A stretch of DNA of 64,000 nucleotides from an uncultured Planctomycetota bacterium. GTDB taxonomy: Bacteria > Planctomycetota > Planctomycetia > Gemmatales > Gemmataceae. Every line of letters begins with the position of its first letter. Positions within the stretch are counted from its first letter, which is position 1. This document shows positions 2,358-64,000 of the stretch, in pieces. The DNA is taken from assembly GCA_963849325.1 (NCBI GenBank), contig CAWKHF010000009.1:384001-448000 (forward strand), written 5' to 3'. Under the pieces are notes generated by a model. The model was not told where the DNA came from, did not search any database, and saw nothing but the letters and a program-made list of their open reading frames with translations. The position numbers and the translations under genes were made by a program.

Positions 2358-3467
2358 TTAAGACGAGCCGCCCCAGCGGGCAAGACGGACTGCGGCGAAG
2401 TCGTCGAACCGGCGTTCCTCGATGGCCTGGCGCACCCCGGCCATCAGCCGGCAGTAGAACGCCACGTTATGCAGCGACAGCAGCGTCGGTCCCAGCATCT
2501 CCCTGGCGAGGAAGAGGTGGTGCAGGTACGCTCGGCTGAAATGCCGGCACACGTAGCACGGACAACCGGACTCCAACGGTCGAGGATCTCGCTTGTGGCA
2601 GGTGTTGCGTAGCCGAATTTCGCCGTCGTCAGTGAAGGCCGAGGCGTTGCGGCCGTTGCGCGTCGGCAGGACGCAATCGAACATATCGATGCCGGCGCGA
2701 ACGCCGGCGACGAGATCGCAGGGCCGGCCGACGCCCATGAGGTAGCGCGGCTTGCCGGCCGGCAACAGCGCCGCCGTCGGTCCCAGGGCGGCGACCATCT
2801 GCGCTTCGGTCTCGCCGACGCTGAAGCCGCCCAGGGCGTAGCCGGGGAAGTCCAGGTCCGTCAGGGCACGGGCGCAGCGAGCGCGCAACTCCAGGTCCGT
2901 GCCGCCCTGGACGATGGCGAACAGCGCCTGATCGAGTCGCCGGTGCGCCGTCCGGCAGCGCTCGGCCCAGTGAATCGTTCGCTCGACGGCGACGCGCAGA
3001 TAGTCTGGTGGCGTGTCGTGCGGCGGGCATTCGTCCAGGCACATGGCGATGTCGGAGCCGAGGTTCTCCTGAATGGCGATGGCGCGCTCCGGCGTGAGGT
3101 CCACCAGGACGCCGTCGATGTGCGAGCGGAAGACGGCGGCGCGGTCGTCGATCTTGCGTGTCTGCGCCAGGCTGTAAACCTGGAAGCCGCCGCTGTCGGT
3201 GAGGATGGGCCGGTCCCAGGCCATGAAGCGATGCAGCCCACCCAGTTCCGCGACGACTTCGTCGCCGGGGCGCAGGCAGAGGTGGTAGGTGTTGCCGAGG
3301 AGAATTTGGGCGCCGGCGTCGCGGACCTGTTCGGGGGTCAGCCCCTTGACGGTGGCTTGCGTGCCGACCGGCATGAACACCGGCGTCTCGACGGAGCCGT
3401 GCGCCGTGTGCAGCCGCCCGCGCCGCGCCGCGCCGTCGCTGCCCAGCAGGTCAAAACGAAAAGCCAT
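2358..3467 (-). CDS. tgt: Queuine tRNA-ribosyltransferase
   Basis: 'TPVFMPVGT', 'NTYHL', 'TDSGGFQ', 'DMFDCVLPTRNGR' and the CxCxxC Zn site. Confidence 0.97.
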   Translation of the reverse strand: MAFRFDLLGSDGAARRGRLHTAHGSVETPVFMPVGTQATVKGLTPEQVRDAGAQILLGNTYHLCLRPGDEVVAELGGLHRFMAWDRPILTDSGGFQVYSLAQTRKIDDRAAVFRSHIDGVLVDLTPERAIAIQENLGSDIAMCLDECPPHDTPPDYLRVAVERTIHWAERCRTAHRRLDQALFAIVQGGTDLELRARCARALTDLDFPGYALGGFSVGETEAQMVAALGPTAALLPAGKPRYLMGVGRPCDLVAGVRAGIDMFDCVLPTRNGRNASAFTDDGEIRLRNTCHKRDPRPLESGCPCYVCRHFSRAYLHHLFLAREMLGPTLLSLHNVAFYCRLMAGVRQAIEERRFDDFAAVRLARWGGSS

Positions 3468-3487
3468 GTTTCGCTCGGAGCAACAAT

Positions 3488-3552
3488 GTTTAGCCGCGAC
3501 GCGCAGCGGAGCGTGGGAATCTCCCGCGCTCCGCTGCGCGTCGCGGCTAAAC
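3488..3552. repeat. Palindromic REP-like element, family B
   Basis: GTTTAGCCGCGACGCGCAGCGGAGCG..CGCTCCGCTGCGCGTCGCGGCTAAAC; copies at 15417 and (partial) 7006. Confidence 0.92.
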
Positions 3553-3558
3553 GAGGAA

Positions 3559-12207: not shown

Positions 12208-14795
12208 ATGATGTGGCGTTGGTGTGTTTCGCTCGCCTCTCCGTTCGTCGTCCTTCTGGCCGGCGCCGTTCTCTTTTTGCGAGCCGACGAACAAGACCAG
12301 CTCAAGGTCGGGGTCCAGCCGGACGGGCGCATTGTGGTGCCGACCAACCAAATCCTTAAGCCGGCCGGCCGACAGATCACGTTCCCCGGCCGGCCGGTCG
12401 ATCTGGTCCTGACCGGCGACGGCCGCACGTTGGTCGTCAAGAACCAGCGCGACTTGATTTTCCTCGACGTGGCGACGGCCGCCATCCAGCAGACGCTCAA
12501 GTCGCCGACCGGCTTCAGTGCGGTCGGGCTGCTACTGCGCGACGGCGACGTGTACGTCAGCGATTCCGGCGATCGCGTCCGCGTGGCCCGGCGCCAGAAG
12601 GATGGTCGATTCACCTGGCTACCGTCCCTCGAACCGAGCAAGCCGAAAGGCGGAGGGTCCGTTTACCCGACCGGCCTGTGCCTCGGCGCCGACGGCCAAC
12701 TGTGGGTCGCCTCCAGCCGCGGCAACAACGTGCAGCTTCTCGACCTGGACGGCGCGACGGTGAAGCAAACCGTGCCGGTGGGCGTCGCTCCCTACGCGAT
12801 TTGCCGCCCGCGTCCGGAGCGCGTCTACGTCAGCAACTGGGGCGGCGATCCGCCGGGCGAAAAGCGAACTGCACGCGCCGTCGTCCGGCACGCCGGTTCG
12901 CATCGATCCTGCGCGGCGTCGCCAATCACGGCACCGTCTCCGTGCTCGAATCGGCGTCCGGACAATGGCGGCTGCGCAAGTCGATCCGCGTCGGTCTGCA
13001 TCCGAGCGGCCTGATCGCCAGCCGCGACGGCCGTCTGGTCTACGTCGCCAACGCCAACAGCGATACCGTCTCGGTCATCGATACGGGCACCGAAGAAGTC
13101 ATCGAGACGATCTCCTGCCGTCCCGAGGCGCGTCTGCCGTTCGGCAGCGGCGCCAACGCCCTGGCCCTCAGCCCCGACGGCGGCACCCTCTACGTCGCCA
13201 ACGGCACCAACAACTGCCTCGCCGTCGTTCGGCTCGAGCGCCGCGCTTCCACGGGCGGGACCGGCCGGCCGGCCCGCAGCGCCGTGGCGGGCCTGATCCC
13301 GACCGGCTGGTATCCCGGCGCCGTCCTCGTCTCGCCGGACGGCAAGAAACTGTTCGTCGCCAACGTCAAGGGTCACGGTTCCCTGAGCCAGCCGCGACCG
13401 GCCGACAAGGGCAAGAACTCGCACGATCATCTCGGTTCCGTGTCGATCCTCGACGTGCCCGACGACGCGCAGCTGGCCCGTTACACGGAAGAGGTCAACG
13501 CCAACAACCGCCTGGCGTACAGCCTGGCCGGCCTGGAAAAGCCGCGACCCGGCGCCGCGCCGGTGCCGGTGCCTCGCCGCCACGGCGAACCCTCGCTCTT
13601 CAAGCACGTTCTCTACGTCATCAAGGAGAACCGTACCTACGATCAGGTGTTCGGCGACATGAAGGAGGGCGACGGCGACGCCCGACTGGTCCTGTTCGGC
13701 GAAGAGGTGACGCCCAATCACCACGCCCTGGCTCGGCAGTTCACGCTGTTCGACAACTTCTATTGCAGCGGCGTCCTCAGCGCCGACGGCCATCAGTGGG
13801 TCAACGAAGCCTACGTCACCGATTACCTGGAAAAATCGTTCGGCGGCTTCACGCGCAGCTATCCCTACGAAGGCAGCGATCCCCTCGCCTTCGCCTCCAG
13901 CGGCTTCCTCTGGGACAACGCCCTGCTGCACCGCAAGACTTTCCGCAACTACGGCGAATTCGTCAAAACAACGCTGCCCGAAGGGCGCGACCTGGACCGA
14001 CGTGTACCGCGATTACCAGGGCCAGACCGGCGACGTGAAAATCACGATCAAGGCCAACGTCGCCGCCCTGGCGCCGTTCACGCGCTCCGGCTATCCGGGC
14101 TTTCCGCTCACGGTGCCGGACGTGTACCGGGCGCAGCCTGTTCCTCGAAGATCTGAAAGAGTACGAGCGAAAAGGCGAATTACCGAATCTGCTGTATCTC
14201 TATTTGCCTTGCGATCACACCAGCGGCACCACGCCGAACCTGCCGACGCCGGCGGCCATCGGTGGCCGACAACGACCTGGCCCTGGGGCAAGTGGTGGAA
14301 GCGGTCAGCAAAAGTCGATTCTGGAAGGACACGTGCATCTTCGTGGTCGAGGACGATCCGCAGAACGGCTTCGACCACATCGACGCTCACCGCACCGTCG
14401 CCCTGGTCATCAGCCCGTACACCCGGCGCAAGTACGTCGATCACACCAATTACAACCAGACCGGCATGGTCAAGACCATCGAGCTGATCCTCGGCCTGCC
14501 GCCGATGAACCAGCTCGACCTGTCCGCCACGCCGATGCGGCGCTGTTTCCAGGACGCGCCCGACCTGACGCCCTACCGGTGCCGGCCCAATCGCGTACCG
14601 CTGGACCAGATGAATCCGCCCTTGAAGAAGCTGAAGGGACAGGCCCGGCACTGGGCGGAGAAGTCGCTGGCCCTGGATCTCGACGACGCGGACCAGGCCG
14701 AGGAGGACACGCTCAATCGCATCCTGTGGCACGCCATGCGCGGCGACGCAGCGCCTTACCCCGAGAGGTACGCCGGCCGAAAGCCGGCGCCGTGA
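12208..14795 (+). CDS. Secreted YVTN/YncE beta-propeller fused to a phosphoesterase/alkaline-phosphatase-like domain; several frameshifts
   Basis: Signal peptide, 'YVANANSDTVSVIDT' repeats, 'YVIKENRTYDQVFGD', 'EDDPQNGFDH'. Confidence 0.85.
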
Positions 14796-27997: not shown

Positions 27998-28921
27998 TCA
28001 GTAGTTGCTGGGATTGATGTCGCCGGCGTTGTGGGTCATGAGGGCTTTGATATAGCCATTGCCCGTGGGACTGCCGCCGTTGACGCTGCCATCGAACGTC
28101 ACCATGCGGACGCTGCCATCGTACATGCAGATGGGAAAACCGCCGGAATAGGGACCGCCCCACATGGCTCCGCCGTCATAGTCCCCACTGCCCCCGCCGT
28201 TGGCAAGCGCGTTGAGCGCGGAATCCTGGAAACTATAAATGCCGTCGCGCATACAGCTGCCGACCAAGTAAGTGGGGTCGTTCCACCACCCCGAGGTGGC
28301 GTTGTATTGGTTGGCAGCGAGAGCTCCCATGCCGGCGAAGAGCGTGTTGGAGGTGCCGTCCGTGATGCCCACCAAGGTCAACGCGGTCGGCGTGGAGGGC
28401 CATGTGGTGCTGTCAAAACCGGTGCTGACGCTGCCGCCATTGAACGGGTAGATGTTGAGGGCATAGTCGCAGTGCGAGATACCGCTGCTATCGACGAGGG
28501 GACGCCCGCGGCCGGGATCCATGTAGGTTTTTACTCCCGGAGTTTTTTGTGCCGTAGTACCGCCGATCCAATACGCCGCTGTCGCCCACAGGTTCTGCTG
28601 CTCGATGAACGGCAGGATCTGGTAGGTCCACGGTCCCTGCTGCGCCGTGCCCACGAGTTGAGACTTCGGCCAGTTCAAATGGCCAAATCCGGCGCTGGGC
28701 AGGAGATTGTAGGTGTCGTGGTGGTTCTGCATGCCCAAGCCCAGCTGCTTGAGGTTGTTGATGCTTTGGCTGCGGGCGGCAGCTTCACGCACCTTCTGCA
28801 CCGCCGGCAGCAGCAGACCGATGAGAATGGCAATGATGGCAATCACCACCAACAGCTCAATCAGCGTGAAGGCGGGCTTACCCCTTCCGGACCACTTGTC
28901 TACTTCAGGAGGTCTTATCAC
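27998..28921 (-). CDS. DUF1559 prepilin-type N-terminal cleavage/methylation protein
   Basis: '[34 protein letters not shown]', 'ITDGTSNT', 'DGSVR'. Confidence 0.95.
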
Positions 28922-49685: not shown

Positions 49686-49860
49686 CTTCCACAGTCCTCC
49701 GGAGAGCGAGGAAGTGGCGTTACGGAGGACGGCTTGGGTAAAGACCATGAGGTCGGCGCAAGGAAAAATCCAAAAAATCAGACCTATTTGCCGCCGAGCG
49801 GACAGTATAATAGGGAGCAAGTCGCCCAGAGGAAAGTCGAAAGACTCCTGGAGTGCAAGG

Positions 49861-50515
49861 TTGCGGCTCTCTCCGTCTCAGCAACTGAGCGACAGACTCG
49901 CGGTCCGAGAACGAACTGACGGCGAATTGCTGTCGTGCTTTATCGGCAGCCGTGACGAAGCGGCCTTCGCCGCACTCTTCGCACGGTACGCGCGGATGGT
50001 GTTGACTGTGTGTCGGGACGTGCTGCACCATCCGCAGGACGCCGAGGACGCTCGCCAAGAGACCTTCCTCGTATTGACGCGGAAAGCGAATAGCCTGGGC
50101 ACAGAGGAGATGATTGGCGGCTGGCTGCGAGGCGTCGCTTACCACGTCGCCATGAATGCTCGTAAGAGCAAGAAACGCCGACAAGGTCACGAGGAACGGT
50201 TCGCGATTCGCCCGCAGCCGCAGCCGCAGCCGCAGCCGCAGCCGCAGCCGCAGCCGCAGCCGCAGCCGCAGCCGCAGCCGCAGCCGCAGCCTTTAGCTGA
50301 AGTAGAGTTTCACGAGTTCCAAACTCTCCTAATTACGGCAATCTCGCGCTTGCCGGAGAAATACCGTACTCTATTTATTTTATGCCGCTTGGAGGGCAAC
50401 AGCAAGGCGGAAGCGGCCCAGAAACTCGGTTGGAAGGAAGGTACAGTATCGAGCCGGTTGGCGCAGGCGCAAATTGGTGCAGCGATACTTGACCCATCAT
50501 GGCGTCACCCCATAA
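49861..50515 (+). CDS. ECF sigma factor with a (PQ)13 linker; start uncertain (TTG); probable frameshift near 50470 giving the ending KLVQRYLTHHGVTP*
   Basis: 'TDGELL..RDEAAFAALF', 'DAEDARQETFLVL', 'LPEKYR', 'LGWKEGTVSSRL'; TATAAT at 49806. Confidence 0.82.
50212..50289 (+). repeat. Perfect hexanucleotide microsatellite (CCGCAG)13
   Basis: Directly visible; in frame, encodes PQ x13. Confidence 0.97.
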
Positions 50516-50561
50516 CGAGCATGTTTGCTAAGTTTCGGCGAAGGCAATAGCTGACGGGAGG

Positions 50562-51686
50562 ATGGCAATGGTCTTTCGATGGCTGTTTGCGATTGCCCTT
50601 CTCGCTTCCTCCTTCGCGGTCGCCTTCTGGGGCGGTTTGGCCGCCAGGCAATGGAAGCAGGTTACCCAGGCCCAAGAAGAGAAACTTGTTGGCGGCTTGG
50701 CTGTCTCCGCCGCGGATCTCGATATGGCGGAGGTCTGGGAAGAGAAAGGTGTCGTTTGGCGATTGCCGATTCGCAACCGGACGACCACCTCGATTGACAT
50801 CCGCGAGTTCAAGACTTCGTGTGGCTGCACGGCCATCAAGCCGCGGAGTTTATCGATCCCAGCCGGGGAGACGGCGACGGTCCAGTTGACCATCGACCTG
50901 ACGCATCGCTCTCTGTCGGAATATGGCATGGAGCGTCGTCCGTTCGCCGTATCGATTCAGCCGATTGCGCCCGGTATCCGCTGTGGTGGAGGGAGCTGGC
51001 AACTGCATGGGATCGTCCGCAGTCGCGTGACACTCGATAGGCAGAACGTCCATTTCGGCGATCAACCGATTCACGGACAACCAGCGGCGGCGCTCCAGGC
51101 GCGAGCGACCGTTCATGTACCGTGTCAGCGACTGGAAGTGGTGGTGAATCCTCTCGTGGCCGCCGCAACCGTCAAGCAGCGTGGGGACGAAACGCAGTTT
51201 GACATCACCATCGCCGCGAACCCGGATTTTCCACCGGGTTCCTTCCAGACCAATGCCGAGATCTACGCCGTGGCACCGAGCGGCAAGCGAGCACTGGCGG
51301 CCACTCTGCCCATTGCCGGAGACATGCAGCCGGAGGTTCGTTTACTGCCGTCGCGGGTTCTTCTGGGGCCAACGTCTGTGGGTGAAATGTCGGAAGCGGT
51401 GATAACATTACAAAATCCGTCGGTTGCCGGAGTAGAGGTCGATCACATCGAGATCGATGATCCCGAGTTGCACATAGAGCCTGCGAGGATCGAGGGCATT
51501 TCCTCCGAACGTACTTATCGTCTTCGACAGCGGGCGGCGAAGGAGGGCGAGCAGACAAGCACAGTTCGGTTCATCATCCGTAAGCCGGGCCACAAAATCG
51601 TCACGCTGCCAGTTGAGGTATCGTATCGGGGTGAAGCAGCCAAGAAAACTTCGGCCAAAAGGACCGAAGGGGGGAGGCAGCCATGA
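50562..51686 (+). CDS. DUF1573-domain membrane-anchored protein with Ig/PapD-like domains
   Basis: N-terminal TM, 'IRNRT..I..FKTSCGCT..IPAGE'. Confidence 0.8.
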   Translation: MAMVFRWLFAIALLASSFAVAFWGGLAARQWKQVTQAQEEKLVGGLAVSAADLDMAEVWEEKGVVWRLPIRNRTTTSIDIREFKTSCGCTAIKPRSLSIPAGETATVQLTIDLTHRSLSEYGMERRPFAVSIQPIAPGIRCGGGSWQLHGIVRSRVTLDRQNVHFGDQPIHGQPAAALQARATVHVPCQRLEVVVNPLVAAATVKQRGDETQFDITIAANPDFPPGSFQTNAEIYAVAPSGKRALAATLPIAGDMQPEVRLLPSRVLLGPTSVGEMSEAVITLQNPSVAGVEVDHIEIDDPELHIEPARIEGISSERTYRLRQRAAKEGEQTSTVRFIIRKPGHKIVTLPVEVSYRGEAAKKTSAKRTEGGRQP

Positions 51687-52873
51687 GACGAATTGTTCTT
51701 CTTGCGTATGTCTTTGGGTGGGCGAGTTGGCTCCTCTTGTGCGTTCCTCAGACGGTGCGGGGTGCTGATCCGCAATTGGAGAAGGTGTTGGCCGCCTGGC
51801 AAGAGCGTCAGAATTGGTTCCAAGCTATTGAATATCAAGTCAGCGGGACACATAAAGTGCCGCGAGGGGCTTACACCAACATCGATCCATCGCTTCGCGC
51901 GGCACCTAACAACCGAGTGAATCCTCCGCAAGACGTGGAGGGTCCGGAGAGTTTCACGATACTTCTCGACTTCGTAAAGGGGCGTCATCGCCGGGACATC
52001 CGGGATCAGCAGTTCGATGCCGGCGCCGGCAAACTCGGCCTTGTGGCGATGAAGGACGCCTTCAACGGTACGGTGATGAAATGTCTCATTCCCAAAGAAC
52101 AAAACCCTGGGCAGCAAGTTGGCATTACACAACCGGAAATGACGATCGTTTCTGGCAACATGAAGAACGGTGAATTCCGAAGCAATTATTACCCCATTTT
52201 CTTCGCTCATGGCCGCATTTACACGGCGATAGAGCCAATCCTTCCCGGGGGCTTAAAAAATAAGCCTGACCCGAATTATCTCCACATTCACGGTCGAGGC
52301 GTGTACGAGGACCGAGCCTGCTTGATCTTACGCACCCAAACTTTGCAGATGATGACGACCAGTTTCGATGAATATTGGGTAGACACGGAGAGGGAATGTG
52401 CAATCGTTCGTTATCTCGCCTACAGCGGCAAAAATCCATCCCAGGAAATTGGAATTCGCTACCAGAAATTCCATGAACACTGGCTTCCTGAAACTTGGCG
52501 CTGGATTGTTTATCTTCGAGGTAAAACGCTCTATTACGAGGACATGCGCGTGAAGCACATCGCCATCAATCCGCCAATAACCGATGCGGATTTTGAACTG
52601 GAAGATGTTAAACCGGGAATGCTTGTTACGAAACGAACCGACCTGCCAACAAATAACCCAATAACTGCTCCGAAAAGCGAATCATCTGTTTACCGAGTGA
52701 AGGACGATGGTGGGTGGGAACAGATTCCGGATCCCGCCCATGGGATTGGCGATCAGTACAGGAAGCTTGAGTCCCATCGATGGGCTTGGGTGATTCTCGC
52801 GGTTCTCCTTGTGGCGGGTCTCGGGTTCGGGACCGCCTTTTGGGTAAGAAGGCGGAGAAGGCAATTGCAATAA
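51683..52873 (+). CDS. Exported hypothetical protein with C-terminal TM anchor and basic tail
   Basis: Signal peptide, 'YWVD', 'INPPITDADF' (LolA-like flavour), TM followed by RRRRR; ATGA overlap with the DUF1573 gene. Confidence 0.72.
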   Translation: MRRIVLLAYVFGWASWLLLCVPQTVRGADPQLEKVLAAWQERQNWFQAIEYQVSGTHKVPRGAYTNIDPSLRAAPNNRVNPPQDVEGPESFTILLDFVKGRHRRDIRDQQFDAGAGKLGLVAMKDAFNGTVMKCLIPKEQNPGQQVGITQPEMTIVSGNMKNGEFRSNYYPIFFAHGRIYTAIEPILPGGLKNKPDPNYLHIHGRGVYEDRACLILRTQTLQMMTTSFDEYWVDTERECAIVRYLAYSGKNPSQEIGIRYQKFHEHWLPETWRWIVYLRGKTLYYEDMRVKHIAINPPITDADFELEDVKPGMLVTKRTDLPTNNPITAPKSESSVYRVKDDGGWEQIPDPAHGIGDQYRKLESHRWAWVILAVLLVAGLGFGTAFWVRRRRRQLQ

Positions 52874-53026
52874 GGGCGGCTTGCGTTCTTCCTCCAAGGG
52901 AAAATTGGAACGCCTTCCGAGCCTCATGGCTTCCACCTCTTGCGCTTGCAAGAGATGCGGCATGCGGCTGACGTTACTGTCCGTTGCCCCGCATCTCCAC
53001 CATTCACGGTTGAAAGGAGCCTGGAC

Positions 53027-53500
53027 ATGAAAGCTTCGTGTAAAGCGCTGTTGCTCTTCCTCGCGGTCTGGTTGGTTATGGTTGGGGCGGGTTATTGGTT
53101 TGGCCTCGATCGGGCTTATGCCCAATCGGGTAGTTGCGGCGATTGTGCTACGTGTGCCCAATATACCCAGTATTACTCTGGAGGGGCAGGAATGAGTATA
53201 ACGTTTACACTGCAGGGAACGACCCAAAACTATTATCCGCAGGCGTTCGACGGCCTCTCAGGCTGTGCGACTAAATCGCTCGATCTGTATTACGTCACGG
53301 CCCAATGCTTTGACAGTGCCGGATCTTCCGCTGCTAACCCGCCCGTTATTCTCTCCAGTTGGACCTTCGACAATGCCACGCCCGCTTGTACCATTGGTAG
53401 CCCACCCTCCTCATATATACAAGAAATTACGGATGGTATCGGGCAAGCATTATTGTCTAACAATGTTACCCAATATACTTGCGACGGAAGTTGTTCTTGA
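53027..53500 (+). CDS. Secreted Cys-rich small protein (8 Cys in the mature part)
   Basis: AAGGAG RBS; signal peptide ending AYA|Q; 'CGDCATC..C..C..C..CDGSC'. Confidence 0.75.
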   Translation: MKASCKALLLFLAVWLVMVGAGYWFGLDRAYAQSGSCGDCATCAQYTQYYSGGAGMSITFTLQGTTQNYYPQAFDGLSGCATKSLDLYYVTAQCFDSAGSSAANPPVILSSWTFDNATPACTIGSPPSSYIQEITDGIGQALLSNNVTQYTCDGSCS

Positions 53501-53547
53501 GTGTTTCTTTGAGCGGCATTACGGAGTCCCGCATGGAGAAAGGGTCT

Positions 53548-53612
53548 GGGGAGCGGGGTTGCGTCAGCGCCCCGAGAGAGTCCCTCGGGGCGCTGACGCA
53601 ACCCCGCTCGCC
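53548..53612. repeat. Palindromic REP-like element, family A-related
   Basis: GAGCGGGGTTGCGTCAGCGCCCCGAG..CTCGGGGCGCTGACGCAACCCCGCTC. Confidence 0.85.
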
Positions 53613-53641
53613 GCAGAGTGACACCGGAGCCTCAGCCTGCC

Positions 53642-54868
53642 ATGTCTTCCCAGTATGCTTGGCTCGGCGATTTCCGCACCGGGTTCCTGACCTATCTGCT
53701 GACCTCGATCCCTCTCTGGCTGGGCCTTAGCTTTGGCCACGACTTCGTTCCCTTCAACCGGAATTGCCCTGACAAATCCGCACCCGATTTCCTGACAGCC
53801 TGCTCGCGCTTCGACGGCATTCACTATGCTTCGATCGCCGAATGCGGTTATTCCTATGAGCCGCAGCGGCGCTCCACGGTCGCCTTCTTTCCGGCTTATC
53901 CCCTGGCGGGACGGTTTGTCATGATGCTGACGGGATGGGATGCTCGCCTGGCGCTGCTCGTGGTATCGAACCTGATGCTGCTGGGCGCGTTCATCGTCTT
54001 CTCGGCCTACCTCCGCTCGCGTTGGCCCGATGCTGACCGGCGCAGCCGGCTTGTTGTGTTGGCCGTGTTCGGCCTGTGGCCCGCGGGGTTTTTCTTCCGC
54101 ATGGCCTATTCGGAAAGTACCTTTCTATTGGTCATGCTCCTGGTCCTGCTTGGCATGGTCCGCCGCTGGCCGCTGCCGATCCTCGCCGGCTTGAGCGGCC
54201 TCGTCACGGCCGTGCGGCCGGTCGGCGTCGCCGTCACGGCGGCCTTGCTCTGGCACGTCCTTACCGATGTCCAGCGCGGCCCCATCTCCCGCCGCCTGTA
54301 TCTGGGGCTTTTGTGTTTGCCGCTCGCCCTGTGGGGCTTATTGGCTTACATGACGTACCAAGGCTATCAATTTAACACTCCTCTCGCCTTCGCCCAGACC
54401 CAGGAGCACTGGAGTCACCCGAGATCCTCCAAACGCGACTTCGACGGCAAAGTTGAATCGCTGCTGACGGCGGAGCCGGTCTGGGGCGTCTATGTGCCGG
54501 ACTCGATTCGGAACTGGAAGCGACTCGACCGTCACGACAACCTGTTCTTCAACCTGTTCTTCTGGAACCCAATCCTTTTCGTCGGGATGGTCGTTCTGGT
54601 CCTGGTCGGCGCCGGCAAGTCTTGGTTGTCGGGTCCGGAAGTCGTAGTTGGTCTCGGCTTGCTCGGCATCCCTTACGTCACACGAGCCTACGAGATGTCG
54701 ATGGCTTCGCATGCGCGTTTCGCCGCCATCGTCGTCCCCGCCTATCTCGTGATGGGTCGCATCCTTGCGAATCGGGCGGAGTGGCTAACGTGGTGCGTCG
54801 TCAGCCTTCTATCCGTTCTGCTCATGGCATGGACCGCTCTCTTCTCCTCAGGGTTTTTTTTGTTTTGA
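53642..54868 (+). CDS. PIG-V-like (GT-C) mannosyltransferase-family membrane protein
   Basis: 'RFDGIHYASIA..GY..AFFPAYP', 'AYSES.FL', multiple TMs. Confidence 0.8.
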   Translation: MSSQYAWLGDFRTGFLTYLLTSIPLWLGLSFGHDFVPFNRNCPDKSAPDFLTACSRFDGIHYASIAECGYSYEPQRRSTVAFFPAYPLAGRFVMMLTGWDARLALLVVSNLMLLGAFIVFSAYLRSRWPDADRRSRLVVLAVFGLWPAGFFFRMAYSESTFLLVMLLVLLGMVRRWPLPILAGLSGLVTAVRPVGVAVTAALLWHVLTDVQRGPISRRLYLGLLCLPLALWGLLAYMTYQGYQFNTPLAFAQTQEHWSHPRSSKRDFDGKVESLLTAEPVWGVYVPDSIRNWKRLDRHDNLFFNLFFWNPILFVGMVVLVLVGAGKSWLSGPEVVVGLGLLGIPYVTRAYEMSMASHARFAAIVVPAYLVMGRILANRAEWLTWCVVSLLSVLLMAWTALFSSGFFLF

Positions 54869-56449: not shown

Positions 56450-58318
56450 ATGGCAGAGAATGGACCACGGACTACGAACGTGCTGGGACCTATTTTCAAT
56501 CGAGAATTCCTGACAGTGCCACGCCGCTGGCGTCACTACGTTACGCGGGTGGCCTACCTGGGTGCGCTGTGGATCATCGGCGTGACGGCCTGGCTGGCGA
56601 CAGGCGGCTGGCTGCGGCCGGCGACGCTCGGCGACACGGCGCGGTTCGGCCCGCTGCTGTTTCAGGTTCTCACCTTCGTCGAGCTGGCCCTGTTGCTGTT
56701 TTTCTCCGCCCTGTCCGCCGCCAGCGCCGTCGCCCTGGAGAAGGATCGTCGCACGTTCCTCTTGCTCCTGTTGACCGACCTACGCAACAGCGAGATTGTG
56801 CTCGGCAAACTGCTGGGCAGCGTGCTGCCGATCGGCCTGCTACTGGCGGCGACGGTGCCGCTGCTCATGCTGTTGCTGCTGCTGGGCGGCATCGATCCGC
56901 GTCAGGTTCTGCAAGCCCTCGTGATCGTGGCGGCGGCGGCGTTGGCGGCCGGTTCCCTGGGAGGGCTGGTCGCCCTGTGGCGCGACCGCACCTTCCAATC
57001 GCTGGCGCTGACGGTGCTGTTGCTGGTCCTCTACCTCTGCCTGGTGCGCGGCCTATCCGTGCTGCCGGCCTGGAGCGACCGGTTTTCCGCGGCGGACGTG
57101 CAGCGCTGGCAGGAGTGGCTCGATCCGTTCCTGGCCCTTCGTAGCGTGCAGGATCCGACGGCGCTGCTCGAGCCGGGATTGTCTCCGGCATACGGTTTCG
57201 CCCTGGTCATGGTTTTGCTCAGCGCTGTGCTCAACGGTTGGGGCTTGCTGCGTCTGCGTGTCTGGAACCCCAGCGGCGAGCCGATCATGCAGCGCGAGCA
57301 GCCCGAGGACGTCGATGACCGGGACCATGCGCCGGCCGGCGACTCGAAGACGCGGGCCAGCGTCCACGCCGCTCCCGGTGTGCTGCGCCCGGTCGGGCCG
57401 AACCCGATCCTGTGGCGCGAGATGGCCACGCGGGCCTACGGTCGTCGGCCGCTGCTGGTCAAGACGGCTTATTTCGTGGTGCTGGCCTTCATCTGCTGGT
57501 ACGCGCTGACGCCCTTGATCGTGCAGCGAGAACATTTGCCGTTCGTGGCCGCCTATGGCCTGATCCCGGTGGGTGTGCTCAGCCTGCTGCTGGTGTCGGC
57601 GCAGGCGGCCACGGCCATCACCTCGGAGCGCGACACGGGAGCGCTGGACCTGCTCCTGGTCACGGACCTGACGCCCAGGGAGTTCATCTTCGGCAAGCTG
57701 GGCGGCATCGCCTACAACACGAAGGAGTATCTGCTGCCGCCGCTGTTGCTGGCGGGGGTGTACGCCTTCCACGGCTGCCTGGCCACGCCGCCGTCGGGCC
57801 ATCCGGAGATGCGCGGCTCAATGAATGCCCTGTCGTTGTTGTGTGTGGCCGGCTCGGGTCTGGTGTTGTTGGCCTTCGCGATGGTGCTGGGCATTCACGT
57901 GGCCCTGCGCACGCCCAACAGCCGCCTCGCCATTCTCAACACGCTGAGCACGATCTTCTTTTTGACGGTGGGCACGCTGGTGTGCATCGCCTTGATCCTC
58001 ATCAACGGCCGATTCGAATATCAATGGGGCAGTTTCGTCTTTTTCCTGGTGGCGGGCGTGGGCGGCTTGTGGTGGGTGCTGTCGGGCGATCGGCCGTCAG
58101 CGGCACTGACGTGGGCGAGTTGGTTCTGTCCTCTGAGCGTGCTGTACACGGTGATGAACCTGCTCGTCGCCAAGCCCGGCTCGATGGAGTCGGCCGACCC
58201 GCTCATCCCGTTCGGCGTGATTGTCGGCGCCTTCGGCTTCACGGTGGCGGCCATGCTGGTGCCGCTGGTCAGCGAGTTCGACGTCGCCATGGGCCGTACC
58301 TCCAGCGGGGCCGACTGA
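56450..58318 (+). CDS. ABC-2-type transporter permease (duplicated permease modules)
   Basis: 'GPIFNRE', 'EKDRRT..LLLLTDL..IVLGK', 'NPILWRE', 'ERDTGALDLLLVT'. Confidence 0.85.
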   Translation: MAENGPRTTNVLGPIFNREFLTVPRRWRHYVTRVAYLGALWIIGVTAWLATGGWLRPATLGDTARFGPLLFQVLTFVELALLLFFSALSAASAVALEKDRRTFLLLLLTDLRNSEIVLGKLLGSVLPIGLLLAATVPLLMLLLLLGGIDPRQVLQALVIVAAAALAAGSLGGLVALWRDRTFQSLALTVLLLVLYLCLVRGLSVLPAWSDRFSAADVQRWQEWLDPFLALRSVQDPTALLEPGLSPAYGFALVMVLLSAVLNGWGLLRLRVWNPSGEPIMQREQPEDVDDRDHAPAGDSKTRASVHAAPGVLRPVGPNPILWREMATRAYGRRPLLVKTAYFVVLAFICWYALTPLIVQREHLPFVAAYGLIPVGVLSLLLVSAQAATAITSERDTGALDLLLVTDLTPREFIFGKLGGIAYNTKEYLLPPLLLAGVYAFHGCLATPPSGHPEMRGSMNALSLLCVAGSGLVLLAFAMVLGIHVALRTPNSRLAILNTLSTIFFLTVGTLVCIALILINGRFEYQWGSFVFFLVAGVGGLWWVLSGDRPSAALTWASWFCPLSVLYTVMNLLVAKPGSMESADPLIPFGVIVGAFGFTVAAMLVPLVSEFDVAMGRTSSGAD

Positions 58319-58336
58319 AGGGCTCTGATTTTGCCC

Positions 58337-58367
58337 TTGTCAGCCGACGCGGGATTTGCCATATATT
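58337..58367 (+). promoter_or_regulatory. Candidate sigma70-type promoter of the tRNA gene
   Basis: TTGTCA..TATATT immediately upstream of the tRNA; spacing is long (19 nt). Confidence 0.4.
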
Positions 58368-58381
58368 CGGAGTGGCACAAC

Positions 58382-58419
<38 letters not shown>

Positions 58420-58614
58420 GAAGACCAAATGACTCCAAGTCAGCAATGACGCACCCGCCGATAAACTCACAAAACGGCTAGAAATACGAGAAAAATAGCA
58501 AGATTTTGCAAATCGACCTACAGAAAAACATGCACGCTTGTTGATGCGTGTGTCAAAAATGTGTCTTTTTCGCCCGTACTTAACGAAAAAGGCATCCATG
58601 CCCTTTTCATAAGA

Positions 58615-59802
58615 TCAGACCTCCGGTATCAGCTTCTCGGCAAACTCAGCAAACTTCTTGCCGCTGTCGATCTTGTCCATGTCGAGGTAGTACCGCCGCG
58701 CCGTCTGCGCGTCCATGCCCAGCATCCTCGCCGCTACCTCAGCCGAAATACCCTCCGCGAATAGCAGCGTGATCGCCCGCTTCCGCAGCATGTGCGACTT
58801 GAGCTTCTTCCCGGTCGTCTTCTGGAAAAGACGAAACAGGCTCCGCACGAACGTAGCGAGCGCTTTCGGCGAAAACACCGTCAACAGCCGACCGACCCGT
58901 CTGCCTTGTGCCTCCCGGCATTGCCGGTACTGCTCAGGAAATCGCTCCCACAGGTACTCTGTGCCCTTCAACTCGTCGAGGGCGCGGTACAGCTTGGGAG
59001 GCAACTCAACGCGGCGAAAGTCGCGTGCCTTGAGTTGCTCTGGGTCAAGATGAATGGCCCCGTTCCGAAGCTGGTCGCTGCGCACCGAGCACAAGTCCAT
59101 CAAGCGACAGCCCAGTAGGCACTTGGTCTGGAGGTACAGGATCGGCATCTCCCAGTTCGGGTAACGGTCCTTCACGAACTGGAAGAATTGAAGCAGCACA
59201 TCCTCATCTGGGGCTTCAGGACGCTTCCGGTCCACCTTGGCGTAAGCCACCGCCAGCCACGGGTTGTCCTTCACCATCTTGAGTTCCTTGAGCCATTTGC
59301 TCCAGATGGCCCGCGTCTGCCGCAGATAGGTGTTGAAACTCTGCGTGCTCCGTCTGTAGACCTTGGCGTCTGCGGCCTTGCCACGCTTGAAGCTGCCGCT
59401 CAGGTACTCGTCCTTGAAACGCTGGGCCTCATACGGCCCGATGTCCAGCGGCCCGGTCGTGTCTGGCAAGACGGTTTGGACCACGCGGATCGTCGAGGCG
59501 TAGTTGGCGTAGCTGATCGGGCGATTGCCATTCGCCGTCATGGCCGATTGCAATTTTTGGAGCATCTCGTCCCACGAGATGTGGACGGGCCTCTGGAACT
59601 GCATCGGACAGTAGACGCGCTCGACGATCTTGGCCGCTTCGTTGCGGGCTTCGCCCTGCTCACGCATCCCAGTGCTGATCCGCTCGTAGTCACCCTTCGG
59701 CCCGTAGAAGCGGACGAAGTAAAACTTGCCGCGCTTCGAGAGGGTATAGCCGACCTTTCCGTGGTCAGGGATCTCGAAGAACTCCTTGAACCGCCTACCC
59801 AT
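58615..59802 (-). CDS. Tyrosine recombinase/integrase
   Basis: Arm-binding N-terminus 'ISTG', catalytic 'GCR..DL', 'HMLRK', 'LGM', 'RRYY'. Confidence 0.9.
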   Translation of the reverse strand: MGRRFKEFFEIPDHGKVGYTLSKRGKFYFVRFYGPKGDYERISTGMREQGEARNEAAKIVERVYCPMQFQRPVHISWDEMLQKLQSAMTANGNRPISYANYASTIRVVQTVLPDTTGPLDIGPYEAQRFKDEYLSGSFKRGKAADAKVYRRSTQSFNTYLRQTRAIWSKWLKELKMVKDNPWLAVAYAKVDRKRPEAPDEDVLLQFFQFVKDRYPNWEMPILYLQTKCLLGCRLMDLCSVRSDQLRNGAIHLDPEQLKARDFRRVELPPKLYRALDELKGTEYLWERFPEQYRQCREAQGRRVGRLLTVFSPKALATFVRSLFRLFQKTTGKKLKSHMLRKRAITLLFAEGISAEVAARMLGMDAQTARRYYLDMDKIDSGKKFAEFAEKLIPEV

Positions 59803-59887
59803 AGGGTCGCCCCTTTCAACAGGGGACGGGTCGGCTAGAATGCAAGTGCCAAGAGCATCTGGGGCCGACACGCCCCGGTGTTTCTGC

Positions 59888-59928
59888 CCCGCAGCACCGC
59901 GCCAACGGTGCTGCGGGTTTTCTTTCTT
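59888..59928 (+). terminator. Rho-independent terminator
   Basis: 12-bp stem CCCGCAGCACCG/CGGTGCTGCGGG followed by TTTTCTTTCTT. Confidence 0.75.
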
Positions 59929-59980
59929 GCCGGGGACCGTCCCCAGCACCGCTGCATCGTAACCTGAACGCGAAGCCGCG

Positions 59981-60009
59981 TTCAAGGATAGTTGTGCCAC
60001 AATTATTCT
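59981..60009 (+). promoter_or_regulatory. Promoter TTCAAG-N17-TATTCT with palindrome TTGTG-C-CACAA in the spacer
   Basis: 17-nt spacing; 20 nt upstream of the ATG at 60030. Confidence 0.55.
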
Positions 60010-60029
60010 GAATGGTTTAGGAAGAGGGC

Positions 60030-60215
60030 ATGGGTCGGAAGAAGCTGCCGCCCGGTGTGGGCCGCGAGAACACGCTCCGCATTCGCCTGACGGTGGCCGA
60101 GCGTGCCGTTGTGGATCGAGCCGCTCGCCAGAGAGGGTTCCGCAGCACGTCCGCATGGGCGCGGCAAGAGTTGCTTCGGCTGGCCCGTCGCGCTGGTGCT
60201 GGAGAAGGTTCTTGA
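60030..60215 (+). CDS. Small ribbon-helix-helix-like DNA-binding protein
   Basis: 'MGR..P..RENTLRIRLT.AER..DRAA..STSAWAR..LL'. Confidence 0.75.
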   Translation: MGRKKLPPGVGRENTLRIRLTVAERAVVDRAARQRGFRSTSAWARQELLRLARRAGAGEGS

Positions 60216-60384
60216 GACCGCGATGGCGGTGCTGATGGAAAAGCGAGACGTGCATAGCACAACCCTCTGAACGTACCTTCTACGGCTCAGCCGCGTGGAG
60301 GCGGTCCCAAGCGGGTTGTGTAACTCCTAGATTATTTGGTGTTCTTGGAAAAGGAAAGAGGCTTGGTCGAGGAAAGACTATCCG

Positions 60385-61116
60385 TCACAAGAACGTGACG
60401 TGAGGCAAGGTCTTGTGACTTCCCTGTCGCCTGCTGTTGTCCTGCCCTGCCAGCTTACATATTTCACTCGGCGAACCGGCATGACGAAAAGCCTGCTGGA
60501 TGGCAACGTATCCCCGTCCGATTTGTTCCCACTTATCCCGGTTCCATTCTGCGGTCAAGCTGCACGTCATACCGTCTGCCATCGACTTTCTGTGGTCGGG
60601 CGCGAAGTACCTCACGAGGTACTGGTGTCCCCTGTCCGAAAGGGCATAGGCCCAAGCGCCGTCACCCTCGTTGTCGCCCTGAACGACGTACTCGTTGACT
60701 TGTCTTCGGTGTCGGAACGTCTCGTCGAGGATCGTCTGAGGGTGATTAACCCCAAGGTGGATGATCGCCCAGTCGGGAGGCACGTTCGTCATGACGCCCG
60801 CGAGGATCTCATTGGCGTTGGCGTTGACAAGGATGTCGTCTTCAAGCAGAAGGACTGACTTGTAACCCGAGGTCAGGCAATGCTTCCAGCAATTGTAGTG
60901 GGTCAGGCCGTTGCCGAGGTCGCCGCGATGCCTCATTTTGGGATAGTGAGCAAGTTCCTCAATGGCGAAGTCACCACCGTCAACGCCGAAGAACAACGAG
61001 ACATCCATATTGAGCTTCTTGACCTCTTCTCTGATATGCCGATGCCTCGACAAAAAGGAAGAGGCTGTGAGGACATAGGCGGCGTCAAAGTACGCATTGA
61101 GGCTGTTCGATTTCAT
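60385..61116 (-). CDS. GT25-family glycosyltransferase (prophage cargo)
   Basis: 'FFGVDG', 'THYNCW', 'LLLEDD', 'DWAIIHLG', 'AYALS..G'. Confidence 0.75.
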   Translation of the reverse strand: MKSNSLNAYFDAAYVLTASSFLSRHRHIREEVKKLNMDVSLFFGVDGGDFAIEELAHYPKMRHRGDLGNGLTHYNCWKHCLTSGYKSVLLLEDDILVNANANEILAGVMTNVPPDWAIIHLGVNHPQTILDETFRHRRQVNEYVVQGDNEGDGAWAYALSDRGHQYLVRYFAPDHRKSMADGMTCSLTAEWNRDKWEQIGRGYVAIQQAFRHAGSPSEICKLAGQDNSRRQGSHKTLPHVTFL

Positions 61117-61205
61117 GGAGTAGATACGCCTCACTTCGCGTCTTTCTCTTCCTTCCTCTTGCCCGCCGCTCGCTCTTCTCCATCCTGAACTTGCTGGGAA
61201 CTGGC

Positions 61206-61541
61206 TCAGCAAGAGGCCAATTGAGCCGCCGCGTTCATCAGGTTCATGTAGTACACTTCGGCGAGCGCCATAGCCGTGCCGAACGGGACCAGATCACGCT
61301 CGTTCCAAAGACCGTTAAATGTGTCCACATACAGAACCCGATTCACCCCGCGCGTCCGTCTGGATGTGACGGCCCTGATCGACTTGATCATCACCTTCTC
61401 CAGCACGCCACGGCGCGCCTTCTGGACGTTGTAAACGGTGTCGCCGATGCCGAACGTCGTGACCGATGGATGCAGCATCCCGACAACGATGCAGCCTGCT
61501 GCTGTTGAGCCACCGCTACCTACTTCGTCATAAATCATCAT
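61206..61541 (-). CDS. Phage hypothetical protein
   Basis: GAGG RBS; tightly packed operon; 'FGIGDTVY' motif. Confidence 0.7.
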   Translation of the reverse strand: MMIYDEVGSGGSTAAGCIVVGMLHPSVTTFGIGDTVYNVQKARRGVLEKVMIKSIRAVTSRRTRGVNRVLYVDTFNGLWNERDLVPFGTAMALAEVYYMNLMNAAAQLASC

Positions 61542-61552
61542 TTACCTCACAT

Positions 61553-63142
61553 TCAAGGCTGGGTCACTGGAAGACTTTGCAGGTGACTGAGTTTCCGAGC
61601 CGCTCTCCTTTGAATCCATGCCGCTGTTCCGTTGAGTTGTGCCCGATACTCCTCAATGGACAGTAGGTACTGCTCCGCTACATAGCGTCCGCTTTTGAGG
61701 TAATAGTAGACGAAGGTGTTGAAGTAGTAGATGGCCATCACTTGATCGCGGATATACCGTAGTTGTGTGAACGACTGCACAAATACCACATCGTCGATGC
61801 TGAAGCGGTGATAGGTCAAGCGAGTCTGGTTCGTGTAGTCGATAGACTGGTCGGCAGAGCCGCCGCAGGACGAACCGCTGTTTGGAGACGGGCTGAATAC
61901 GAACTTGGTTGCTGCTGTGCCGCTGCCCATCGCGCCACTAGTCGTAGGCACAAGGTAGTCATCGACGATGGCGGCAATGCCAGCAGCGAGAATGCCGCCT
62001 GTTCCCTGCTGGCCGAAGATCACCGTGTTGGGAGCCGAACCAGAAACATCTACTCCCGCCGAGGACACGATCTGGTTCGCAATCATCGTGTCCGTCGCGG
62101 AGCCAGCCGCCCAATCACCGGCAGTGATGATGGTCTGGTTTTCGACCTCGCTGTAAGTTGCCGAGCCAGCAGCAAGGAGGCCAGTGGTGGCGAGGTTAAG
62201 GTTGTAGCTGGCTGTACTCGTCGTGGTTCCAGTCATCCAGACGCCAGCCTGAGCAGGTGATTGGCTGAAAACTGCCCCGTAACTCGCAGATCCAGCATCG
62301 AGAATGCCAGCCGACACGATACTTGAGTTGTGGATCGTCTGGATCATAGCCGCAGAGCCAGCCAAGATCTCACCACTCATCACTTCGTTGTAAACGCTGG
62401 GAAGAAGACCCGCTATTCTCTTCGTCTGGTTCAGCAACCGTGGATAACCAAGTCTGCTGTTCACATATAGGTCGTAGACCTCGACGGCAGTGAGCGCACG
62501 ATTGTAAATCCGCACGTCGTCCTGCCAACCAGTGTAAGGATCAGCTCCAGTAGCATTAAGTCGCTGTCCGAAGGCGATTCTGCTCGTCACAGAGGCACTG
62601 GTGCCCGTTACCGACGCCTGCGAGACACCATTGATATAGATGCTCGCGGTCGTACCATCATACGTCCCAGTGACCAAGGCCCAAGTGTTGAGCGGAATGG
62701 CAGTAGGTGAGGTAATAGCCGAGCCACCATTGTAGAGGTATTCCGGTTGTCCTGAATTGAAATTCAGACGCAACTCATCGCCAGTAGAACCGCGTGAGAT
62801 AAACATGGGAAAGACGCCATAAGCATTGATGTTCACCCAACAGGAATAGGTGCGAGGCTGCGTGGCCGAGGTAAACGCAAGCGACGGCGAGGACGGCACA
62901 GCAACATAACCCGTGGAACCGGAGTAATACATCGCCCCTTGACCCTCTGCTCGGGTCGTACCCGTCCAGCCCTGTCCGCTGCCCATGTTGGTGAGCGTAC
63001 CGTGGTTGAGGCCCATGAGGTCGTACCACATGGGACCACCATCCAGTCCGGGCAACACCATCCACCATCCCACCAGCCCTCGTGCAAGCGAGTGGTTCAG
63101 GTTCACAGGTTCAGGCAGATAGACACGAGACGGCAGGGACAT
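61553..63142 (-). CDS. LamG/concanavalin-like domain phage structural protein with ~21-aa repeats
   Basis: 'GLVGWW', 'TYSCWV', 'W.LVTGTYDG..IYING', 'DDVRIYNRAL..EV'. Confidence 0.82.
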   Translation of the reverse strand: MSLPSRVYLPEPVNLNHSLARGLVGWWMVLPGLDGGPMWYDLMGLNHGTLTNMGSGQGWTGTTRAEGQGAMYYSGSTGYVAVPSSPSLAFTSATQPRTYSCWVNINAYGVFPMFISRGSTGDELRLNFNSGQPEYLYNGGSAITSPTAIPLNTWALVTGTYDGTTASIYINGVSQASVTGTSASVTSRIAFGQRLNATGADPYTGWQDDVRIYNRALTAVEVYDLYVNSRLGYPRLLNQTKRIAGLLPSVYNEVMSGEILAGSAAMIQTIHNSSIVSAGILDAGSASYGAVFSQSPAQAGVWMTGTTTSTASYNLNLATTGLLAAGSATYSEVENQTIITAGDWAAGSATDTMIANQIVSSAGVDVSGSAPNTVIFGQQGTGGILAAGIAAIVDDYLVPTTSGAMGSGTAATKFVFSPSPNSGSSCGGSADQSIDYTNQTRLTYHRFSIDDVVFVQSFTQLRYIRDQVMAIYYFNTFVYYYLKSGRYVAEQYLLSIEEYRAQLNGTAAWIQRRAARKLSHLQSLPVTQP

Positions 63143-63639
63143 TAGACTCCAACATCAGTTGCAGGAACCAGACTGAGGGTCGAGCCAGTCGGAATGGTCT
63201 GACCTGAGCTATTGTTCTTGGCGAGTACCTTGAACGGGCAGGCGGGCAGGAAGCAGGCCACCGTGACCTTGTTGTCGGCGGCAGCGGTCGAGGTCGAGTT
63301 GAGCGGCAGAACGGCGTCAGGACGACGTGCAGGCAAGACACTGGACGAGCCGCCCTCGAAGGTGGTCCCGCCGTCCATGCTCTTGAGGAAGTACACGTCG
63401 ATAGACGTATTGGCGCTTGGTGCAGAAGCAAATGCCCCGCCCGGTACGAAGGTGACGTAACCACGCTCGTAGCCGTCGCCCGTGGTGCTGCTGGAACCAG
63501 AGCCAGCCGTGTTGTTGTAGACGCCAGTGCCGCCGAGTGCGGAGCCGACGACGCTGGAGTTGTTGGCCAAGCCGCCGAGTTCCGTGCTGGCAAGAATGGT
63601 CGCTGAAGTGCCGAGGACTTCTTTAATCGTTGTGCTCAT
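63142..63639 (-). CDS. Phage hypothetical (probable virion) protein
   Basis: AGGAGG RBS; 1-nt overlap with the LamG gene; beta-rich S/T/G composition. Confidence 0.75.
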   Translation of the reverse strand: MSTTIKEVLGTSATILASTELGGLANNSSVVGSALGGTGVYNNTAGSGSSSTTGDGYERGYVTFVPGGAFASAPSANTSIDVYFLKSMDGGTTFEGGSSSVLPARRPDAVLPLNSTSTAAADNKVTVACFLPACPFKVLAKNNSSGQTIPTGSTLSLVPATDVGV

Positions 63640-63647
63640 TTACCTCC

Positions 63648-64000
63648 TTAATGAACGCCACGCAGGGCGAAAGAAACGTCGCTGTTCGAGATGACCGTCC
63701 CGGCCCCGAATAAGAACTCGGCCCTGCTGCCTGTCTTCTGAGTCACGGCATTGATCTCTGCTTGGGTGATGAGGCCGTCCGATACACCTTGAGCGAGCAA
63801 TGCTTGGACGTTGCTGGTGCTCAAGTCCACGGCGGTTGCGCCATTGATGATGTTGAGGATGTCGCGCCACTGTTGCTGCTTGGTGGTGGATAGTGTGGAC
63901 AGGTTGGTGTAGATCGCTGGCGCGAAGCCGAGAACGAACTCGTCCTTGGTGAGTGAGGTCAGACCCACCGTGGCCGCACCGGAGCCGGTCGTGGCGTTCA
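63648..64000 (-). CDS. Phage hypothetical protein (5' end outside the window)
   Basis: Open frame to the window edge; same operon. Confidence 0.65.
   Translation of the reverse strand, partial: NATTGSGAATVGLTSLTKDEFVLGFAPAIYTNLSTLSTTKQQQWRDILNIINGATAVDLSTSNVQALLAQGVSDGLITQAEINAVTQKTGSRAEFLFGAGTVISNSDVSFALRGVH

Follow-up and report, generated by a model that had tools for sequence, protein, structure and literature searches.

What is the run of five co-oriented genes on the + strand of this DNA, between positions 49747 and 54868, for, and do its members belong together? The whole stretch, here called the window, is 64,000 nucleotides long and comes from an uncultured Gemmataceae bacterium of the phylum Planctomycetota (contig CAWKHF010000009.1). 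The five genes encode, in order, an extracytoplasmic function (ECF) sigma factor, a DUF1573 protein, a 396-residue anchored protein, a 157-residue Cys-rich exported protein and a PIG-V-like glycosyltransferase of the GT-C type. A first-pass annotation made from the letters alone had read them as an export or maturation module under a dedicated sigma factor. We found that the three middle genes form a conserved triad, DUF1573 followed by a LolA-like protein and then by the small exported protein. Taken singly, the members are of known fold or family (DUF1573, GT-C, ECF sigma and, by fold only, the LolA superfamily), and we did not find the triad described in the titles and opening lines of abstracts of the literature on DUF1573, on DUF1559 and on planctomycete LolA, lipoproteins and outer membrane. 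Our tentative reading, to which we give a probability of about 35%, is that this is a private periplasmic maturation and display cassette serving a pilin-like envelope apparatus.

We compared the gene neighborhood at 13 loci from 11 genomes or records: the window, L013 to L020, L022, L026/L035, L039 and L041. Several of the genomes are incomplete, and absences hold for the sequence searched. At 12 of the 13 loci, the gene immediately before the LolA-like gene is of the DUF1573 type; in L019, which is cut by a contig end, a short open reading frame (ORF) occupies the DUF1573 slot. Pfam recognized DUF1573 in nine of ten upstream proteins scanned together and also in those of L039 and L041. In the window, the stop codon of the DUF1573 gene (50562–51686, 374 aa) overlaps the ATG of the gene for the anchored protein (51683–52873, 396 aa) as ATGA, and the ORF calls of the two genes overlap also in L013, L014, L022 and L041. 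The suggestion that the two are translationally coupled is thus borne out, and the pair are conserved, often overlapping, neighbors. A check proposed at the outset was whether a divergent Cys-rich secreted ORF always fills the next position. It does: at 13/13 loci, the ORF after the last LolA-like gene is small, Cys-rich and exported. When 61 related genomes were searched with a profile of the Cys-rich family, the 13 matches fell in seven genomes, all of them among the 11 that carry the LolA-like family, and every match was on the same strand as, and just downstream of, a LolA-like match. The ORFs in this slot at L041 and L039 are Cys-rich, and their homology is not demonstrable by profile comparison (hhalign probability 0.6% and 25%); that of L020 reached 91%, limited to the C-terminal 46 columns.

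The distribution is patchy. The LolA-like family, which comprises 26 database proteins, was present in 11 of the 61 relatives and, in a phylum-wide sample of 401 genomes, in nine, seven of which belong to one other family. A search of genome contigs with a 16-row alignment returned three loci. In this analysis, the triad was met only in planctomycete-like genomes.

As the first-pass annotation had noted, the anchored protein starts with a signal peptide and ends in a helix and RRRRR; no Pfam or NCBIfam family matched it at E ≤ 0.01. Its fold is given here by an AlphaFold2 model built on an alignment of 24 relatives (predicted local distance difference test score, pLDDT, 89.8; predicted template modeling score, pTM, 0.81). 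The model consists of the signal-peptide helix, a long antiparallel sheet forming an open β-barrel over approximately residues 30–320, and a C-terminal helix at residues 358–395. Foldseek matched it to the DUF1329 protein 4z48 (E = 6.8e-10), to LolA3 (9tp6) and LolB, both from Porphyromonas gingivalis, and to other LolA and LolB structures, RseB (3m4w) and LprG. A VIA-align search of 48,161 chains gave the same picture: the LolB structure 9tpm aligned with Z 14.5 and a root-mean-square deviation of 4.6 over 220 residues, and 3bk5, 9tp6 and 4z48 each with Z 14.0, so that these matches span Z 14.0–14.5 over 206–220 residues. The structure prediction that had been suggested as a check thus returned a confident LolA/LolB/RseB-type fold. 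On this model, the protein is a member of that fold class predicted to be held in the inner membrane by its C-terminal helix and basic tail. LolA-like genes are also duplicated in tandem, with three copies in L026/L035 and two each in L014, L019 and L039. Two isolated observations concern the same family. In L017 (6235–7460), the LolA-like gene appears to be split into a 74-aa ORF with the signal peptide and first helix and a separate 348-aa ORF, which suggests a frameshift or a sequencing error. In L037 (96–2788), which a contig end cuts, a DUF1559 gene begins immediately after a tandem pair of LolA-like genes, and no Cys-rich ORF intervenes.

The product of the third gene of the triad (53027–53500, 157 aa) is the most variable. 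The gene is preceded by AAGGAG 8 nt before its ATG, in agreement with the strong ribosome-binding site reported for it. The protein had been described as Ser/Thr-rich and secreted, with eight cysteines; the mature part of about 125 aa does have eight Cys, the whole protein has nine, and the Ser plus Thr content is 24.8%. A look-up of sequencing runs for 50562–54868 listed none, of RNA or otherwise. It had no Pfam, NCBIfam or usable ESM Atlas match. A profile search of 1.84 billion proteins at E ≤ 1e-3 recovered a family of 119 representative clusters whose full-length members are 124–184 aa long, with five shorter fragments down to 77 aa. Four cysteines (Cys37, Cys43, Cys121 and Cys152) are invariant across 86 aligned sequences, and a C-x(3-6)-C motif follows the signal peptide in 111 of 114 members. 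Ahead of the first invariant Cys, the window has AYAQSGSC and most members have A-x-A and then P-x-C-P. We also considered whether an "FGLGE" motif that closes the signal peptide might act as a tag for special cleavage and rejected the idea, as the motif is present in only 34/114 members. One copy in G025 (C226) is decayed, with five stop codons, and still lies beside a LolA-like gene.

The three proteins of the triad diverge at different rates. Where BLASTP aligned more than 30 residues, the small protein was the most diverged gene product in five of six locus pairs; between the window and L013, for example, the Cys-rich proteins share 29% identity, the DUF1573 proteins 52% and the LolA-like proteins 53%. 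Two further pairs gave Cys-rich alignments of only 13–24 residues. Over the same six pairs, the LolA-like protein was more diverged than DUF1573. A three-chain complex model of DUF1573, the LolA-fold protein and the Cys-rich protein scored 0.01, which speaks neither for nor against an assembly; the fold of the Cys-rich protein is itself uncertain.

The DUF1573 gene starts behind a GGGAGG ribosome-binding site, and its product, which carries an N-terminal membrane anchor, matches PF07610 over residues 51–116 (33.2 bits against a cut-off of 26.1) as well as PF22544. The annotated S-C-G-C motif is present at residues 86–89 and the first Ig-like domain is confirmed at residues 51–116; the further Ig-like domains that had been assigned have no family match. 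Residues 120–374 resemble other planctomycete DUF1573-bearing clusters by language-model features only. A comparison of the DUF1573 profile with PDB sequences gave nothing meaningful (best E 0.15), and in the literature on DUF1573 we found no paper that addresses its function. Both cysteines of the CxC, C87 and C89, are invariant in 14/14 distinct module-linked DUF1573 sequences that we aligned. Selenocysteine at such a site is typical of redox sites. Tables in two reviews of selenoproteins include DUF1573 selenoproteins with the motif U-G-C (PMC9312934, PMC13188914). Because such forms are listed and because the exported protein next door keeps exactly four cysteines, the CxC is a good candidate for a thiol-disulfide site.

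If the triad matures an envelope protein, what else is found with it? The gene that closes the window cassette (53618–54868, 416 aa) encodes a polytopic protein that matches PF04188 just below threshold (E = 1.5e-4, 21.7 bits against a cut-off of 22.4). Its homologue in L014, 42–44% identical, passes the cut-off with 34.7 bits, and PF04188 matches two of the four GT-C members aligned. An Asp in a putative first loop (D66, in RFDGIHY) is invariant in these four sequences. The GT-C profile found nothing meaningful among PDB sequences (best E 1.4). A GT-C gene adjoins the module at seven loci, being PIG-V-like in the window, L013, L014, L022, L039 and L041 and PMT_2-like in L014, where two GT-C genes stand together, and in L026, where it is cut by the contig end. 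The link claimed between GT-C and the DUF1573 module is thus a frequent one, present at 7/13 loci. The PIG-V-like family as such occurs in 12 of the 61 relatives.

A second recurrent neighbor was a DUF1559 gene with a prepilin-type N-terminal methylation motif. It follows the module at 7/13 loci (L013, L015, L016, L017, L019, L022 and L039), that is, at seven of the ten with a readable downstream region; L014, L018 and L026 reach a contig edge first, and the window, L020 and L041 have no DUF1559 gene in the stretch fetched. L015, L016 and L017 are closely alike and count as about one event. The genome of the window has 75 DUF1559 matches in its 8.16 Mb, a density at which chance would be unlikely to produce adjacency at such a rate. 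In L039 (22–13225), the module lies between a secretin gene (five Secretin_N domains and one Secretin domain), accompanied by a small lipoprotein ORF, and genes for a MacB/FtsX-type ATP-binding cassette (ABC) permease and ATPase.

The genome of the window also holds a second, diverged cassette on another contig (L038, 9723–14506). Its order is a GT-C paralogue, a DUF1573-like gene in two frames (9723–10136 and 10075–10833), a 201-aa protein with 13 Cys, a 383-aa protein with a remote LolA-like profile match (probability 82%) and a DUF1559 gene with 80.5% identity to its counterpart at the L013 module. In a small GT-C tree, the L013 enzyme groups with the L038 paralogue (65% identity, support 98/98) and not with the GT-C of the window (51%). 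The cassette in the window is thus a distinct copy, which has a GT-C gene to itself and lacks the pilin-like gene. Next to a frameshifted GT-C gene of the same genome (L043), a candidate third pair was rejected, as the profile comparison had matched membrane helices only.

The surroundings of the module differ at every locus and include cytochrome oxidase (L015), URO-D (L016), BamA (L020) and hybrid kinase (L013) genes. In L022, the full five-gene module stands between two DDE_Tnp_1 transposase gene copies (3193–4416 and 12588–13124) in the manner of a composite transposon, and the small ORF and GT-C gene of L041 are separated by an IS5-type gene. The L022 record is labelled Alcaligenaceae, and its genes are of planctomycete type (DUF1559, DUF1573). 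Codon usage had been described as richer in A/T-ending codons in all five genes of the window. This was true of the first four, whose GC content at third codon positions (GC3) is 0.68 (sigma), 0.66 (DUF1573), 0.56 (LolA-fold gene) and 0.52 (Cys-rich gene), compared with 0.85 in the left neighbor and 0.83–0.86 in the two right neighbors. It was not true of the GT-C gene, whose GC3 of 0.76 lies outside the dip and does not fall under the window mean (0.763, standard deviation 0.077, from 45 other ORF calls, some of them possibly spurious). The three core genes had a lower GC3 than their neighbors in every related locus for which values are listed, so the dip is a property of the module and not of a single insertion. 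In an empty-site test for insertion, orthologues of the 893-aa left gene and of the major facilitator superfamily right gene sit on different contigs in same-genus genomes, so that flank synteny is not conserved and no empty site is demonstrable. The cassette is best explained as a mobile, fast-evolving accessory of the planctomycete envelope. Separately, a second region of lower GC lies at 58001–64000 of the window (0.55–0.60, compared with approximately 0.66).

From the gene order, coupling, conservation, LolA-type fold, motifs and relative divergence rates described above, we infer the activities and protein contacts of the following model. Two periplasmic proteins made together and anchored in the inner membrane, DUF1573 by its N-terminus and the LolA-fold protein by its C-terminus, would act on the product of the next gene, a Sec-exported client of about 125 residues that varies greatly save for four cysteines. 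The CxC of DUF1573, as a thiol-disulfide active site, would form or shuffle the two disulfides of the client. Specificity may come from the LolA-fold protein, which would keep the client, or a hydrophobic portion of it, at the membrane; this would explain why it co-diverges with the client, at nearly the same pace. Where GT-C is present, it could work on the periplasmic face of the membrane and transfer a sugar from a lipid-linked donor; the acceptor would be either the Ser/Thr-rich client or the pilin-like protein. The mature client would then work with the DUF1559 pilin-like protein at or beyond the outer membrane; the link to DUF1559 and the secretin gene upstream of the module in L039 point to a pilin-like export or fibre apparatus as the destination. 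In the genome of the window, the cassette is without the pilin-like gene, and an ECF sigma gene has come to lie in front of it. A more specific version of this proposal joins the triad, GT-C and the DUF1559 protein in a variable surface system of a kind not yet described. Here the CxC redox Ig-like protein and a membrane-anchored LolA-fold receptor would attach the small protein, glycosylated, hypervariable and with two disulfides, to a pilin-like fibre, where it would serve as tip or cargo. We consider this version unlikely; were it true, exchange of the cassette between strains would confer lineage-specific surface or effector specificity.

Several results weigh against the maturation and display proposal. 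The window cassette itself has neither a DUF1559 nor an N_methyl gene, and the nearest such gene lies at 28283–28870 on the − strand. The GT-C family is present in G001, G002, G003 and G005, where the triad was not found, and LolA-like relatives in another family are sometimes without a preceding DUF1573 gene; in L025, the upstream ORF has no Pfam match. The CxC may bind a metal instead of acting on disulfides, and in L015 cytochrome oxidase genes precede the module. As to the client, its model reached a pLDDT of only 69 and gave no PDB fold match at E ≤ 0.001, and no lipobox was seen when the protein was inspected by eye. LolA-fold proteins usually bind lipid tails and not folded proteins. 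Finally, the tandem LolA-like arrays and the orphan copies in G025 fit the pattern of immunity genes at least equally well. That genome, which belongs to the same family, has 14 LolA-like matches and seven Cys-family matches on short contigs (L018 and L019 come from it) of approximately 38% GC; the other loci have 58–64% GC.

This last pattern leads directly to the alternative that the Cys-rich protein is a bacteriocin-like toxin that acts in the periplasm, oxidized by DUF1573 and exported by the pilin-like apparatus, with the LolA-fold protein as its cognate immunity protein. The hypervariability of the small protein and the co-divergence of the LolA-like gene fit such an arrangement, as do the tandem and surplus LolA-like copies, the patchy distribution, a GC3 below that of the host context in every locus read, and the insertion sequence genes around the module in L022 and inside it in L041. 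However, we found no toxin domain or fold match in Pfam, NCBIfam, the Atlas or the PDB and no dedicated exporter or lysis gene, and a steady link to GT-C and a pilin-like gene is, to our knowledge, atypical of bacteriocin loci; the decayed Cys-family copy in G025 is compatible with either reading. On balance, we regard a toxin and immunity pair as rather improbable. The lipid-binding habit of the fold leads instead to glycolipid or lipoglycan handling, in which GT-C would build a lipid-anchored glycan and the LolA-fold protein carry its lipid tail across the periplasm, with DUF1573 and the small protein as accessories. The lipid carriers LolA, LolB and LprG bound to phosphatidylinositol mannoside (3mha) are indeed among the fold matches, GT-C adjoins the module at seven loci and is doubled in L014, and the MacB/FtsX-type permease and ATPase follow the module in L039. 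Yet the partner that accompanies the LolA-like gene at all the loci read is the Cys-rich protein (13/13) and not GT-C (7/13), divergence this fast is unexpected for a lipid carrier, and no other genes of sugar or lipid biosynthesis recur at the loci read, so that this explanation, too, seems rather improbable. Capture of a hydrophobic compound by the small protein or by the LolA-fold pocket, with inward relay by the DUF1559 protein, draws on the same hydrophobic pocket of known LolA-fold members and on the DUF1559 gene at seven loci; we judge it distinctly unlikely, since the module has no recurrent transporter, riboswitch or metabolic gene as a neighbor and hypervariability is not expected of a binder of one fixed ligand.

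The remaining alternative depends on the first gene of the run (49747–50550), whose product is an ECF sigma factor by TIGR02937 (73.6 bits against a cut-off of 42.9) and by PF04542 and PF08281, which cover regions 2 and 4. Its open frame begins at 49471 and the likely start is the ATG at 49747, although this start is uncertain. An array of 13.3 perfect copies of CCGCAG at 50212–50291 (Tandem Repeats Finder; 100% matches, score 160) encodes a Pro-Gln linker joining regions 2 and 4; its length could vary through slippage. The sigma stop codon lies 11 nt before the DUF1573 start and the genes are operonic. This arrangement, together with fold matches of the LolA-like protein to RseB and MucB (3m4w, E = 2.4e-6; 6jau, Z 6.4), would suit a stress sensor in which the LolA/RseB-like protein regulates the upstream ECF sigma factor as RseB does sigma-E. 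Against it, a sigma gene lies upstream on the same strand at 1/13 loci, namely the window; L017 has only a divergent sigma-like fragment by the module. The family has 29 paralogues in the genome of the window, and its best match in the searched relatives has 53% identity. Pfam and NCBIfam scans detected no anti-sigma domain in the cassette, and DUF1573 has just a few cytoplasmic residues. Seven further proteins, the small ORFs upstream of DUF1573 at six other loci and a 281-aa ORF of the window, had no Pfam family at E ≤ 1 when searched for sigma or anti-sigma domains. Because the neighborhoods lack the sigma link, the RseB-like sensor is contradicted and we consider it highly improbable; the same distribution, paralogue count and best identity do not support the claim that the sigma factor is dedicated to the module.

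One further feature of the window lies between the Cys-rich and GT-C genes. A hairpin with a perfect 26-bp stem, not assigned to a strand, occupies 53548–53612, with a predicted RNA fold of −85.8 kcal/mol (z −9.8). Its sequence has 48 matches, counting both strands, at 77–100% identity on at least ten contigs of the genome. The hairpin is a copy of a family of dispersed palindromic elements resembling repetitive extragenic palindromic (REP) sequences.

DUF1559 and DUF1573 are among the largest unexplained planctomycete families, and the cassette gives both of them fixed partners together with a small client amenable to bench experiments. That client represents a family of small exported proteins, 119 clusters strong, without a name in the libraries searched (Pfam and NCBIfam). 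The cassette also adds a membrane-anchored branch to the LolA fold, as far as the predicted model goes. If the redox assignment is correct, DUF1573 would be an envelope disulfide catalyst built on an Ig-like scaffold.

How does the proposed maturation and display cassette compare with known systems? The closest structural relatives are the LolA, LolB and LolA3 carriers and DUF1329 proteins (9tpm, 9tp6, 4z48 and 3bk5), with which the 396-residue protein shares an open antiparallel β-barrel and N-terminal helices. It differs from them in having no sequence-family match (Pfam, NCBIfam), in being held in the membrane by a transmembrane helix at its C-terminus and a basic tail, whereas the named relatives are soluble or lipid-anchored, in its constant pairing with DUF1573 and a Cys-rich protein, and in the fast divergence and tandem duplication of its family. 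RseB and MucB, which work with sigma-E and RseA, are similar in that the window has a LolA-type fold near an ECF sigma gene; here, however, no anti-sigma partner was found and the sigma link is absent from the other 12 loci. The glycosyltransferase side recalls TfpW pilin glycosylation in group IV Pseudomonas aeruginosa. We know of no TfpW locus with a DUF1573, LolA-fold or Cys-rich partner. As TfpW loci are reported (bioRxiv 10.1101/2020.04.19.049825), they share with L013, L022 and L039 a membrane glycosyltransferase gene beside a pilin-type gene and accessories, but the pilin-like gene is here of the DUF1559 type and is absent from the window cassette. In the arrangement of an inner-membrane-anchored periplasmic helper encoded next to its exported client, the cassette resembles the lipase-specific foldase Lif, with the difference that there would be two helpers of unrelated folds and that the probable client is tiny and hypervariable. 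The putative chemistry is closest to that of the CxC disulfide donors Mia40 (CPC) and the Erv2 tail (CGC), which likewise place a Cys-x-Cys beside small clients with a fixed set of cysteines, and the U-G-C variants of DUF1573 point toward redox chemistry. The scaffold is an Ig-like fold in another compartment with no sequence relation to either donor.

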